From positions 1 to 33,477 of the forward strand of contig JAYSWN010000083.1 of assembly GCA_043718025.1 (NCBI GenBank): a DNA stretch of 33,477 nt. Reading direction: 5' to 3'. How positions within the stretch are numbered: position 1 is the first letter of the stretch; each line of letters begins with the position of its first letter. The translations under genes and the position numbers were made by a program. The stretch comes from Pseudomonadota bacterium (GTDB taxonomy: Bacteria; Bdellovibrionota; FAC87; UBA2466). The notes under the pieces were generated by a model. It was not told the DNA's origin. It saw only the letters and a list, made by a program, of their open reading frames with translations, and did no database searches. Below are positions 751 to 18,017 of this stretch, piece after piece.

Positions 751-2070
751 TTGAAGCGCGTCTTACTAATTCTATGGCTGGGATGGGGCTTGCCTCTCCT
801 TTCCAACGACTGTCCTAACCTACTCATTCAAGGGGTGAAGGCCTTTGCGCACCGGTTTTCCGAAGCTACGGTGTTGGAGCCCCTCGGACCAAGCAGAGTG
901 TTCGTCGGCATGCCGGGCGGCGCGTTTCCGGTGGAAGTGACTTCGATGGAAGAGCGTCGACAGCAATTACTGCAGGCCAAGGGAAGCCAGGGCGTCTATG
1001 AATTGACTGAAGGTGATTCCCGGCTAGTTCGCCATTGGCCTCTAGACAAGTCAGACGGGCGGCTGATTGGTGTCGATGCGGCGCGGACGCGATTCTATAT
1101 GGCGGAGCGAGAGACTGCGGAGACAGTTGAAAGGTTCGAGCAAATTGTAGCTTACGATTGGTCTACCGGAAAAAAAGAAGTACAGACCAAAAAAGTGGTA
1201 ACGCCGCCCTCTTCCGACTTGTCTGTCCTTGCGTACTTCAGCTCTCCTCAAGTTCTGACTATCCAAGACCTTGCCACGGACGATAGATGGAAAATCCGTT
1301 CTCCACCTAATTTACGTTTGCAAGAACACGAGTTTGGGAGCCTGTTTTGGCCGGCAGATAAAAGCTTCTTCATCGCTGCGTTCAAATCCAACGATAACGG
1401 TTACTCATTGCTCAGGTTAAGTAAGGAGTCCAGTTCGCCCAGATCGAGAATCCTTATTTCCCAAGCGGTACCGTTGGCATTATCGCCGAGCGGTGAGCAT
1501 CTTGTCGTACAAACCTTTGCAGAGGGTGTTCTGGGATCTTTGGTGCTGATTCACCCCCGGCCGAGCAATGCCGTTAAGATTCCTGAAATTAATATGGCGC
1601 TGCCTTATCAAGAACTCCAGCCCCTATCCGTCCCAGAACAAATTTTTTTCTCCCCCGACGAAAAATTTGTCTATCTGACGTTCCATTGCCGAGAAATCAC
1701 ACCCCAGAGATCTGGTCCCTGGTTTTGGCGTGTCGTCCGCTGGGAATTATCGGACGAACTTCTACAGGGTGAACTCATGCTCGACACGCGAGACGTTTTA
1801 TCGCCAGCGGACGGTTACTCTCCCTTTTCAAGTATTCAAGTTGCCGGGCAACCGGTTCGCACCTTGGCTTATGAAGCGCCCCGCCCGGGACAGGAAGGGG
1901 GGATGTTGAAATACTTTGAGAACTTCAAGTTGAAGCAAATTTGGCTTGTGGAGGATAAGAAATCCGGTCCGATCACGGGAATTCGGTGGGGAGTGGCTGG
2001 AGAAACGGTAGTGCTGAGTTCCTTTGCGGGAATATCCATAGTGCGTTTACCCTCTTTCATCGAAAACTAG
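751..2070 (+). CDS. Secreted beta-propeller-like (TolB/WD40-like) hypothetical protein
   Basis: Long ORF (track start 718). TTG at 751 gives signal peptide MKRVLLILWLGWGLPLLS. Blade-like motifs LFWPADKSFFI, LALSPSGEHLVV, IFFSPDEKFVYL, ITGIRWGVAGETVV. Confidence 0.65.
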   Translation: MKRVLLILWLGWGLPLLSNDCPNLLIQGVKAFAHRFSEATVLEPLGPSRVFVGMPGGAFPVEVTSMEERRQQLLQAKGSQGVYELTEGDSRLVRHWPLDKSDGRLIGVDAARTRFYMAERETAETVERFEQIVAYDWSTGKKEVQTKKVVTPPSSDLSVLAYFSSPQVLTIQDLATDDRWKIRSPPNLRLQEHEFGSLFWPADKSFFIAAFKSNDNGYSLLRLSKESSSPRSRILISQAVPLALSPSGEHLVVQTFAEGVLGSLVLIHPRPSNAVKIPEINMALPYQELQPLSVPEQIFFSPDEKFVYLTFHCREITPQRSGPWFWRVVRWELSDELLQGELMLDTRDVLSPADGYSPFSSIQVAGQPVRTLAYEAPRPGQEGGMLKYFENFKLKQIWLVEDKKSGPITGIRWGVAGETVVLSSFAGISIVRLPSFIEN

Positions 2071-2190
2071 CCATCGCAGTGCTGGCAAGAAAACGTAAGT
2101 TTCTCGATCTGGCCGGAAGTGATTAGGTACCGTTCTGTTGAATTACGAGGGTTTGTCTTTCCTGCCTTACTAACCGATAAGCACTGAGCC

Positions 2191-3717
2191 ATGCTGTGTT
2201 TTAGTTACATTCGTACCGCCCTGCTGCTTACCTTATGGCTATTTGCGTCAACCAGTTGGGCGCTTACCCCCGAGCAGTGTGGGACGCAGCTTCGCAAACT
2301 TCCCCGGCGCACCGAACTAGCTTGGCCGGAAGGCTCGGTTCTCCAGCTAGAAGCCCTTTTGGCCGATCCGCTTAGAACCCAGAGAGAAGAAGTGCAAACC
2401 AACGGGGGCGAAATCATTTCAACCGAGCGGCTGGCTCGGGAAGGGCATTTGATCACGCCGCAACTCTTGCTTGAAATCGGCGTGCCCGCTTCCCTGCACC
2501 GTTTTTATGATCCGAAGACGGGAGTGTTTCACTACCTGCCCGCAAGGCAACGATTGCTCAGCTCCGAAAATGGAGACGAAACGGTAACCACCCTTCATTT
2601 CAATATCCCGCAAAATATCGCCGGCCAGCTTGGCCTAAAGTACCTTGCCCCCGATTTTGAAAGAGTTTTGCAACGGGATCAGTCGGTAAAAATCTTTTTG
2701 GCGATCGGATCCGACCAAAGAGAATCTCTAGAAAAATGGCGAAACGGGTTGCCGGCCCGGCAAAAAGAGCGAGTGAGAGTTGTAGTAGCTCCCGTACATG
2801 AGGCCGCTCTCGATTGGTGGGCTCAAGATGGCTCCAAACCTGCAGCGCAGGAAGGGGGAGGGTCGGTGATGCTGATTCCACGCGGACCGATAGGTGCGGA
2901 AAATAGCTTTCGGTATGAAGGCGGAATACAAGCGTTGCTGCAAAGCGGCGTGGCAAACGTGGACTATTCGCCCTTTCGCTTTGAGGGAGGAAACTTAATC
3001 GTTGGGGCTCGTCATGTTTTTGTAGGTTCCAACGTGATTGAAGCCGCGATGAAGGATTTTCGTATTCCCCGCTCGGCCGCCATTCAAGCCCTTGGTTTAG
3101 AATTTGGAAAAGAGATCATTGAAGCGGGGGTGCCGTCCGCAGAGGGCGGAAAAATTCAACCGGTTTTTCACGTGGATTTGTCGTTTGCATTGGTGCGTGA
3201 CCGGCGAACGCATCACGAAGTCGTGGTAATGGAAGATCCCTCCCTGGCGATGGAGATCATTTTGGGGACGGGCACCACGAAGTCTAGAGAGAACTTTGAA
3301 AAGGCGAGGGAGGCTTGGTTTATCAAACAGCCCCCAGGTTTTACTTCCTTCGAGCGACAAGACTTTGCTACCTCTGTGCATTCACTGACGTGGGAGTCGC
3401 TCCAGTATCGTTTGCGGCAACAGGCTTTTCTTCGGCAACAGTTTGAAGCCAAGGACTACCGGGTGCAGGCAATCGCCGGACTAACGGGCCTGAGCGCCGG
3501 AAAGCGTGAGGGAGATTTTGCCATTCCGCTGAACTACACTAACGTCATTCTCTCCGGCGAAAAAGCATACGTCCCAAAGACTGGAAACTGGGGTCTAGAT
3601 GCCGCCGCCCTCCGCACGTACCGCGACTTTGGTTATGACGTTGTCCCCATGCCGTCGGCTGCCTTTTTGTATTGTGCCAACGGCGGCACTCGCTGCGGGG
3701 CGCAGACGTTTCGATAA
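2191..3717 (+). CDS. Secreted pentein-superfamily enzyme (peptidylarginine deiminase / agmatine deiminase-like)
   Basis: Signal peptide ending ASTSWA. Motifs in canonical order: WAQD, FEGGNL, FHVDL, NYTN and C-terminal GGTRCGAQ (catalytic Cys position). Confidence 0.8.
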   Translation: MLCFSYIRTALLLTLWLFASTSWALTPEQCGTQLRKLPRRTELAWPEGSVLQLEALLADPLRTQREEVQTNGGEIISTERLAREGHLITPQLLLEIGVPASLHRFYDPKTGVFHYLPARQRLLSSENGDETVTTLHFNIPQNIAGQLGLKYLAPDFERVLQRDQSVKIFLAIGSDQRESLEKWRNGLPARQKERVRVVVAPVHEAALDWWAQDGSKPAAQEGGGSVMLIPRGPIGAENSFRYEGGIQALLQSGVANVDYSPFRFEGGNLIVGARHVFVGSNVIEAAMKDFRIPRSAAIQALGLEFGKEIIEAGVPSAEGGKIQPVFHVDLSFALVRDRRTHHEVVVMEDPSLAMEIILGTGTTKSRENFEKAREAWFIKQPPGFTSFERQDFATSVHSLTWESLQYRLRQQAFLRQQFEAKDYRVQAIAGLTGLSAGKREGDFAIPLNYTNVILSGEKAYVPKTGNWGLDAAALRTYRDFGYDVVPMPSAAFLYCANGGTRCGAQTFR

Positions 3718-3739
3718 TAAAAGTGGGTACTTTTCCTAC

Positions 3740-3773
3740 AAAAAAAAGCCCCGGTGAATCACCGAGGCTTTTC
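3740..3773. terminator. Bidirectional intrinsic terminator
   Basis: A-tract + GCCCCGGTGAATCACCGAGGC + TTTTCT hairpin between convergent genes ending at 3717 and 3797. Confidence 0.85.
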
Positions 3774-17052: not shown

Positions 17053-17062
17053 AGTTTGTCAC

Positions 17063-17080
17063 TTTTCACTGCAGTGAAAA
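17063..17080. promoter_or_regulatory. Perfect 18-bp palindrome, putative operator
   Basis: TTTTCACTGCAGTGAAAA in the divergent intergenic region. Confidence 0.5.
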
Positions 17081-17156
17081 ATGCACGCATCGGACTTAAC
17101 AACTTCACCCGTCAAACGTCTAGCTTGCGGGGCAAATTCTAAACAAGGTGGAAACA

Positions 17157-18017
17157 ATGAAGAAACGCTTTTTAATTTCGTTACTTTTTTTCATAAACTC
17201 GCTGGTTCAAGCCGAATCTCCCCAGTATTCAGAAGACGAACCGCTCACCGAAGAGCAAATTTCGACGATTCTAGAGAAAGCGGAAGCTGCCCTCTTTGAT
17301 ACGATGCGCACTACGCGAGCCCGGAGCACGCCGGCGCTGCGGATAAAATTTGTGGAACAAGCCCACGCCAAGGCAAACAGTGCCGGATTTTATGGCCTGG
17401 TCGACCAAGTTTCAGAACTCGAGAAGGCACTCAAGATTGCAGGACGAGGCTCTCTATTAGACCGTATTGCTGCCCTTGAAACAGCCTTAGGAAGCGAAGC
17501 TTCCAAGGACGAGGGAGCCGTTCGACGACTGCAGAGGATAACCAAAGCGTACGAAAACAGACTGAGCGATGAGATTGATAAACTAAACGATGAGGTCGCT
17601 GATCTTGCGGCAGATGACTTCGAACAACAATACGGCAACCCGGGTAAACTATCGTTCGAACAGCGCATCACCCTCATTGAAAAATTCGGTGACGAAGCCG
17701 AACGTGCTTCCCGCCAAAAAGTTTACGCGGGTTCGGCCGTTGCCCCTCAGATTGAAACCTTACGAAATCTCGTACCCGAAGCTGCCGGTAGGTTTGGAAC
17801 TGCTTCCCGCGCCTTGGCTCATCTAGAAAGTTTCTTTTCCGTAGCGATCATTAAGGAGGAAAAGACCCTTTCGGAAAGTGAGCGGGTGGCCCAGCTCATT
17901 CCGCTGGTCGAAAGCCACTACGCGAGGGTTCTTAAAGAAGCACGGTCAAAAAACTCTGTCGACCAACGCGTAAGAAGGTGCCCATCGGCATTACTCCAGT
18001 CGCCTACAGAAAAATAG
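17157..18017 (+). CDS. Secreted helical hypothetical protein
   Basis: SD AGGTGG then ATG 17157 (track start 17148); signal MKKRFLISLLFFINSLVQA; LLDRIAALE, AVRRLQRIT and FEQRITLIE motifs. Confidence 0.75.
   Translation: MKKRFLISLLFFINSLVQAESPQYSEDEPLTEEQISTILEKAEAALFDTMRTTRARSTPALRIKFVEQAHAKANSAGFYGLVDQVSELEKALKIAGRGSLLDRIAALETALGSEASKDEGAVRRLQRITKAYENRLSDEIDKLNDEVADLAADDFEQQYGNPGKLSFEQRITLIEKFGDEAERASRQKVYAGSAVAPQIETLRNLVPEAAGRFGTASRALAHLESFFSVAIIKEEKTLSESERVAQLIPLVESHYARVLKEARSKNSVDQRVRRCPSALLQSPTEK

Follow-up and report, generated by a model that had tools for sequence, protein, structure and literature searches.

Exported proteins of a Bdellovibrionota bacterium carry, just behind the signal peptide or at the C-terminus, a short peptide in which a cysteine is followed four residues later by a leucine (C-x3-L), here called the tag, and this pattern was followed from the 33,477-nucleotide stretch presented above (contig JAYSWN010000083.1; hereafter the window) into the rest of the genome and the phylum. 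The Cys-helix motif is real and genome-wide in this organism. Judged by sequence comparison, it is also portable, standing at either end of a protein behind a spacer of variable length, it recurs on exported proteins phylum-wide, it lies outside every protein family tested, and it likely helps to route prey-directed enzymes beyond Sec. The window is contig C216 of genome G000, a 4.14-Mb assembly that is 92% complete and in which 3651 genes were called with our own hexamer model. A heuristic signal-peptide finder sorted the genes of G000 into 828 Sec-type, 178 lipoprotein and 1759 cytoplasmic genes; protein classes and cleavage sites alike are heuristic, with misassignments in both directions, and the counts given below refer, unless stated otherwise, to the 789 complete Sec-type proteins of G000.

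The sequence-only reading had proposed that such a motif would prove enriched over background, and the genome bears this out. Of the 789 Sec-type proteins, 55 have C-x3-L in their first 22 mature residues, compared with 9.2 ± 2.8 when windows are taken from the interior of these proteins (maximum 18 in 1000) and 17.4 ± 4.1 in shuffled windows (maximum 32 in 1000); at residues 20–42 of cytoplasmic proteins it is found in 47 of 1711. Within 25 residues of the cleavage site the count is 60 of 789 against 19.0 ± 4.1 in shuffles and, if phenylalanine is admitted at the last position (C-x3-[LF]), 70 of 789 against 27.2 ± 4.9, values that none of 1000 shuffles reached. Position +4 is the only spacing that stands out (C-x2-L is found 32 times versus 21 ± 4), and neither the mirror motif L-x3-C (13 of 828) nor the counterparts S-x3-L (105) and T-x3-L (76) exceed shuffles. 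Leucine occupies +4 of 56 of 207 early cysteines as opposed to 165 of 1872 internal ones (p = 1e-12), and it is depleted in windows that start at the lipoprotein cysteine (5/180). Of 99 tags, 54 have a hydrophobic residue at +7, a position that played no part in defining them, versus 30% of 482 internal C-x3-L controls (p = 7.5e-6). Helix-capping residues are favoured at −1 of the tag cysteine and polar residues at +1 and +2, and the spacer that separates the cysteine from the cleavage site is polar and 1–20 residues long; the hydrophobic moment of tags is not significantly higher than that of the internal C-x3-L controls (p = 0.11).

At the C-terminus, C-x3-L occurs in 34 of the 789 Sec-type proteins against 17.6 ± 3.8 in shuffles, and the excess over shuffles at the two ends suggests roughly 40 N-terminal and 15–20 C-terminal true tags in G000. 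The cytoplasmic class also exceeds its shuffles at this end (48/1572 versus 33 ± 5), an excess due in part to exported genes that fell into this class through missed starts. Taken by itself the C-terminal count is weak, and the C-terminal case therefore rests on single-cysteine proteins and on conservation. Among the 136 Sec-type proteins with a single mature cysteine, that residue lies in the first 25 residues of 43 (14 expected) and in the last 32 residues of 30 (18 expected; as high in 24 of 10000 draws). Leucine follows at +4 in 22 of these 43 N-terminal cases and in 13 of the 30 C-terminal cases, as against 6 of 63 internal cysteines. Pairing with an internal cysteine, which the sequence-only reading had itself raised as an objection, cannot explain the motif, since in 34 of 98 tagged proteins the mature chain contains a single cysteine. 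Tagged cargo bodies contain 0.33% cysteine compared with 0.71% in untagged Sec proteins, most ATP-grasp carriers have a single cysteine, the other cysteine positions differ between helicase orthologues, and no conserved partner cysteine was found in the same chain. These single-cysteine carriers largely refute the idea that ordinary structural disulfides, helix periodicity and noise in gene calling together produce the pattern. In its favour, signal peptides were called heuristically, the ends of the cytoplasmic class modestly exceed shuffles as noted above, one candidate peptide in the window (in the gene at 8981) proved to be a domain motif, and a Bdellovibrio bacteriovorus protease is reported to have an N-terminal structural disulfide (10.64898/2026.06.08.730854); the motif is nevertheless directional and specific for cysteine, and its cysteine is kept at 18–40% identity while spacers vary (ATP-grasp, helicase and CAE78470.1 families), so that we regard this explanation as highly improbable.

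Across the phylum, exported members of five families keep the terminal cysteine and cytoplasmic members are without the extension, the deiminase-like family following the rule only in part. In the family of the window's helicase (11 loci), a signal peptide followed at varying spacing by C-x3-(L,F,W,V,I) is present in all nine members with an intact start. Of four full-length homologues of the deiminase-like protein, P0002 keeps the tag, L003 keeps it at a different spacing, P0003 has the cysteine without leucine at +4, and P0004 has no cysteine. Among 30 loci for PRK07206-like ATP-grasp enzymes, an early cysteine is present in 17 of 17 signal-bearing members (one signal peptide having been read by eye), 15 of them with a hydrophobic residue at +4, and it is absent from 12 cytoplasmic members and one membrane fusion. 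Two ATP-grasp paralogues of G000 carry the tag at opposite ends, and circularly permuted ATP-grasp proteins carry it C-terminally: among protein matches, all 14 of the exported type and none of the 4 cytoplasmic ones have a tail cysteine. The tail could be read at 63 of 77 loci, and the cysteine is present at 59 of them, 47 with a hydrophobic residue, mostly phenylalanine, at +4. The four without it comprise two without a signal peptide and two cut at the start. The 14 loci left out are six cut at the end, four with the cysteine and four others, namely a myxobacterial protein with neither signal peptide nor cysteine, L347 and two distant actinobacterial matches. Members of this family come from Bdellovibrionaceae, Pseudobdellovibrionaceae, Bacteriovoracaceae and Oligoflexales, and that the tag is confined to Bdellovibrionota is suggested by only a few homologues from outside the phylum (L320, L359). 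The model organism itself has a carrier: CAE78470.1, a hypothetical protein of B. bacteriovorus that gene order identifies as Bd0490, ends in C-x3-L-F, and in its family a cysteine near the C-terminal end is present in 14 of 14 members and forms one of seven invariant columns down to 18% identity. On a tree of the ATP-grasp loci L162–L191, tagged enzymes have, by eye, longer terminal branches than the cytoplasmic members, which would suit fast-evolving effectors.

Structure prediction gives a similar picture of an added peptide. For an ATP-grasp enzyme with a C-terminal tag, AlphaFold2 gave from 34 sequences a model with a mean pLDDT of 89 and a confident core that resembles glutathionylspermidine synthase-like ligases; the tail helix begins at the cysteine with pLDDT under 50, and the tail is therefore predicted to be appended to the enzyme. 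The tag's terminal position behind a polar linker, together with potentially harmful cargo such as proteases, helicases and Clp ATPases, might instead point to a safety catch or redox switch that keeps an enzyme inactive until it is cleaved or reduced and that has no routing role. Such a catch would require a single short motif to block many unrelated folds, whichever end it stands at, and in the predicted ATP-grasp model the tail does not pack confidently on the enzyme; we consider it very unlikely.

The cargo supports a sorting handle tied to the export of enzymes that ought not to function in an ordinary periplasm. Pfam scans covered the 97 of 155 motif-positive genes that lie in the fetched regions (the motif-positive genes include chance matches, membrane proteins among them) and 107 of about 700 untagged Sec-type neighbours. 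Families that depend on ATP, acetyl-CoA or S-adenosylmethionine (SAM), a grouping that is our own and post hoc, account for 12 of the 97 tagged proteins and none of the 107 neighbours (p = 9e-5), in line with the sequence-only suggestion that tagged cargo would be rich in cytoplasm-acting enzymes. The 12, three of them weak matches, are three Clp-like ATPases, a ResIII helicase, three ATP-grasp ligases, two GNATs, a pyruvate kinase and two methyltransferases; other tagged cargo includes Nudix, ParB-like, NIF phosphatase and WD40 proteins, and 68 of the 97 have no Pfam match at 1e-5. The untagged controls are porins, TonB receptors, wall enzymes, DsbA and similar proteins, along with two cytoplasm-type redox enzymes, a glutamate-synthase-family protein and a zinc dehydrogenase, the latter with C-x3-I five residues past its signal peptide. 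Cargo bodies are more cytoplasm-like in composition than untagged Sec proteins, and of eight Sec-type proteins that match a Walker A pattern five are tagged, the three others being an exported Clp protein of the C232 operon discussed below and two spurious-looking matches. As a sorting handle, the tag would also account for the presence of signal peptides on ATP-dependent enzymes in these genomes.

Several further carriers were noted in passing. A second pyruvate-kinase-like protein (L042; G000:C225:12101-13720) has a signal peptide and an N-terminal tag, the normal cytoplasmic enzyme being encoded elsewhere, and a search of 250 phylum genomes at E 1e-70 found no match to it. Three paralogues (G000:C135:1426, C226:13389 and C51:39588) all have a C-terminal Cys-x3-L/F, two of them with a kinase-like glycine-rich loop as read by eye. 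In genome G071, a family-2 glycosyltransferase (L291:3611-4585), a type of enzyme that normally faces the cytoplasm, has a signal peptide and an N-terminal tag.

We tentatively favour, at a little short of an even chance, the reading that the tag is a disulfide-docking handle, geometrically like the signal recognized by Mia40, for a step of export towards prey that follows Sec. The appended peptide would present a periplasmic receptor with an unpaired cysteine and a short helix whose +4 and +7 positions are hydrophobic. Cargo would first be exported by Sec to the predator periplasm, a compartment normally without ATP, acetyl-CoA and SAM, in which enzymes that depend on these cofactors would stay idle. 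The helix face would then sit in a hydrophobic cleft while the cysteine forms a mixed disulfide with a carrier; the complex would cross by way of an outer-membrane machine, and reduction would free the enzyme where prey cofactors exist, in the prey cytoplasm or a leaky prey periplasm. Disulfide docking is favoured because the cysteine is unpaired, the cargo is purged of cysteine and the hydrophobic residues lie on the cysteine face of the helix. The sequence-only reading had likewise suggested a mark for second-step translocation or disulfide tethering; its motif, the unpaired cysteine and the coupling to signal peptides stand, and the translocation step and the disulfide chemistry are what we infer. 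A bolder version, possible though on the unlikely side, is a phylum-wide pathway in which a Mia40-like periplasmic disulfide receptor moves a kit of ATP-dependent enzymes, comprising helicases, Clp unfoldases, ligases, kinases, acetyltransferases and methyltransferases, into the prey cytoplasm. On that version, each predator's set of effectors could be read off its sequence, and the tag could be attached to proteins of choice.

The model for this docking is the MISS/ITS signal of Cox17, described (PMC2806287) as a portable nine-residue amphipathic helix beside the docking cysteine for Mia40, with key hydrophobic residues at +3, +4 and +7 downstream of the cysteine and activity from either end of the substrate. 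The tag resembles it in the enrichment at +4 and +7 and in the placement of these residues on the cysteine face of a helix that is itself predicted with low confidence. The same source places MISS in eukaryotic import and oxidative folding of twin-cysteine substrates, whereas tag carriers are bacterial Sec substrates, often with one cysteine, and +3 is not significantly enriched; the likeness is one of analogy, not homology. Signals of comparable logic are known elsewhere. PEXEL in Plasmodium and RxLR in oomycetes are second signals behind a signal peptide that deliver cargo into another cell, and the A chain of AB toxins is tethered by a disulfide that reduction releases. PEXEL and RxLR are eukaryotic and lack a cysteine, however, and AB toxins are one dedicated A-B pair, whereas the tag is a single motif on many unlinked genes with no cognate carrier adjoining.

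As to the outer-membrane machine, a type II secretion system (T2SS; secretin and neighbours on G000:C41) is the first candidate. Its genes, like those for type IVa and Tad systems, are present in G000 according to our reading of gene clusters by eye, and we infer that tagged proteins may depend on it; candidate cysteine partners would be GspD, with one cysteine, and GspC, with two. No contractile sheath was found in the 92% complete assembly by a search with PF04984 only, which gives no sign of a contractile injection or type VI system. A simple twin-arginine pattern is present in 3 of 119 tagged and 9 of 709 untagged proteins, so that tagged proteins do not look like Tat substrates.

An unpaired terminal cysteine in an oxidising periplasm can equally form intermolecular disulfides, and with DsbA/DsbB genes present the tags could cross-link carriers to one another or to a fixed partner in the predator envelope, serving retention or assembly as opposed to delivery. 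The existence of tagged lipoproteins would suit such an arrangement. It leaves the bias towards ATP-, acetyl-CoA- and SAM-dependent enzymes unexplained, tags occur at both ends of just one Sec-class protein, and tagged genes are unclustered (20 observed versus 22 ± 6 expected); we judge it unlikely. A carrier gene encoded beside the tagged genes was likewise rejected as a component of the docking reading, tagged genes not being clustered.

The main rival to disulfide docking is that the cysteine is lipidated, by S-acylation or a diacylglyceryl group, and that it and the amphipathic helix hold the enzyme in a membrane, which would serve display on the cell surface, loading into vesicles or insertion into prey membranes. 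The peptide would then still be a sorting tag with other chemistry, and we rate this as rather unlikely. An unpaired cysteine with a short helix is compatible with it, and the invariant cysteine of other bacterial sorting signals has been proposed to be lipidated (PMC11980579; 10.1101/2023.06.07.544157). G000 has two Lgt genes (C196:1031-1840 and C199:124328-125137), one beside a probable lnt, most of the 71 phylum genomes searched give at least two Lgt matches, and G000 has one gene for an Rce1-like protease, a family (CPBP) that also matches 11 of 14 control genomes. Two Lgt genes are nevertheless also found where samples gave few tags (G030), and some carriers already have a lipobox. As in bacterial lipoproteins (lipobox, Lgt/Lsp/Lnt), a cysteine lies near the signal peptide of unrelated exported proteins; the tag differs in its polar spacer, in conserved residues after the cysteine, in the existence of a C-terminal form and in the lack of a lipobox. 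The sequence-only reading had placed the tag cysteines outside lipoboxes, which holds for all those in the window, and genome-wide 1 of 63 N-terminal tags resembles a lipobox ([LVI][ASTVIG][GAS]C directly after the hydrophobic region), a charged residue standing between cleavage site and cysteine in 57 of the 63.

The MYXO-CTERM-type signals offer a bacterial parallel, each being a short tag with an invariant cysteine on dozens of unrelated exported proteins per genome, and MYXO-CTERM proteins are reported to use a T2SS in another predatory phylum. These signals are C-terminal only and tripartite, with a motif, a transmembrane helix and an arginine cluster, whereas the tag stands mostly at the mature N-terminus of cytoplasm-type enzymes with no transmembrane helix or arginine cluster. 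Among 49 C-terminal tags, a hydrophobic 15-mer follows the cysteine in one, a point against lipidation as well, and a basic end cluster in none; a MYXO-CTERM-like NCBIfam model gave no match in 84 proteins at E 1e-4. Bdellovibrio goes unmentioned in the available part of the Haft preprint (10.1101/2023.06.07.544157). The motif was not found described in full-text searches, whose reach did not extend to subscription journals or bioRxiv supplements that could hold a mention, and a sorting handle of this kind is likely to be undescribed.

A number of observations weigh against a docking handle for delivery, beginning with the C-terminal excess in the cytoplasmic class described above. The ATP-grasp tree needs only two to three changes of tagged state and is compatible with a single origin, so that family members are not independent and count as few events. 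L347 is a signal-bearing ATP-grasp protein without the tail cysteine, and some tagged members are also lipoproteins (lipobox plus tail cysteine), which is awkward for release into the prey cytoplasm. A motif scan of exported proteins returned many thioredoxin-like candidates and no clear receptor, no Mia40 family search having been made. An exported Clp operon (G000:C232:13151-27016) encodes proteins with signal peptides and no C-x3-L/F tag, and may use another route. The reverse test with cytoplasmic paralogues was not significant (6/31 versus 119/758, with a contaminated control class). In B. bacteriovorus, Bd0490 was not significantly induced at 30 min of predation, and its locus tag did not turn up in the two proteome supplements searched. 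Finally, tag load varies between phylum genomes: 400-kb samples of G112 (1/86), G030 (1/76) and G007 (1/87) gave no bulk enrichment, other samples gave 3 of 40 (G128) and 3 of 27 (G071), and in pooled flanks 12 of 212 proteins are tagged, more than in internal windows (0 of 300) and marginal when set against shuffles (17 of 300).

As a short portable peptide, the tag would give a handle on the putative receptor and would pick out candidate effectors among the many hypothetical proteins, with a carrier already at hand in the model organism (CAE78470.1). Secretion by Bdellovibrio-like predators has been called 'largely unexplored' (PMC12622784), and prey is reported to be killed by secreted proteins without invasion (PMC11003981). 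How such predators move proteins across their outer membrane and on into prey is largely open, and the tag gives a direct test in the model organism.

In the window itself, all peptides listed by the sequence-only reading are found at their genes, and five of the six fit the motif. The first belongs to a 439-aa exported orphan on the forward strand (751..2070, start TTG at 751), whose N-terminal tag CPNLL (811..825; Cys21, leucine at +4) lies two residues past the predicted cleavage site. A second cysteine is at residue 313, and the earlier label of a propeller found no support, the protein having no Pfam or NCBIfam match and no homologue in the 33 family genomes searched. The label of a deiminase fared better: the exported protein at 2191..3717 (+) has the invariant motifs of the pentein-fold deiminase/amidinotransferase-like enzymes and a weak match to 6nib (E 0.032), its catalytic residue is likely the invariant cysteine of a C-terminal GGxRC, and its N-terminal tag CGTQL (2278..2292, +; Cys30) lies five residues past the predicted cleavage site. 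Pfam confirms an exported superfamily-2 helicase (ResIII/DEAD plus Helicase_C) at 5299..8892 (+), with the N-terminal tag CAQRL (5374..5388, +; Cys26) six residues past the predicted cleavage site. On the reverse strand, an 89-aa exported open reading frame (ORF) at 10925..11194 has the tag CADLF (11096..11110, −), in which Cys29 (codon 11110), with phenylalanine at +4, lies five residues past the cleavage site and is the sole mature cysteine. The C-terminal example is an exported helical orphan of 286 aa with a single cysteine (17157..18017, +), whose tag CPSAL (17979..17993, +) places Cys275 12 residues before the end; no homologue was found in five relatives searched, and a single-sequence AlphaFold2 model was uninformative (pLDDT 43). 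The sixth peptide, FPCDL in the gene at 8981, was rejected, having glutamate at +4 and belonging to a domain, since a distant homologue shows it again close to an H-x-C-x-x-C.

Other features of these genes and their neighbours deserve brief mention. The helicase is built, in its C-terminal half, of several long degenerate repeats that match nothing in Pfam. The 89-aa ORF is followed in other frames by overlapping ORFs at 10920-10600 and 10664-10128, and within 10128-11194 (−) a C-rich run lies near its first stop; the three ORFs are possibly one decayed cargo gene, two public assemblies have identical letters across the 11194 ORF region, and relatives of the 10664 ORF are absent from the genomes searched. 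The gene at 8981-10057 encodes an orphan with a possible signal peptide, and the PCDL/H-x-C-x-x-C region that it has in common with a distant homologue from G004 is possibly metal-binding. A DUF4423 profile scan of the genome contigs gave no match, and no RNA entry is listed for 9900-11400. Two helical orphans (14347-15054 and 17157-18017) flank a lipoprotein gene and have similar R-L-x-A-L-E-x-x-L-G-like repeated peptides, the tag being present in 17157-18017 only. Further along, 22510-28791 encodes a 2093-aa Thr/Gly/Ser-rich repeat protein with many cysteines and a C-terminal DUF5122 propeller, which is likely a surface adhesin.

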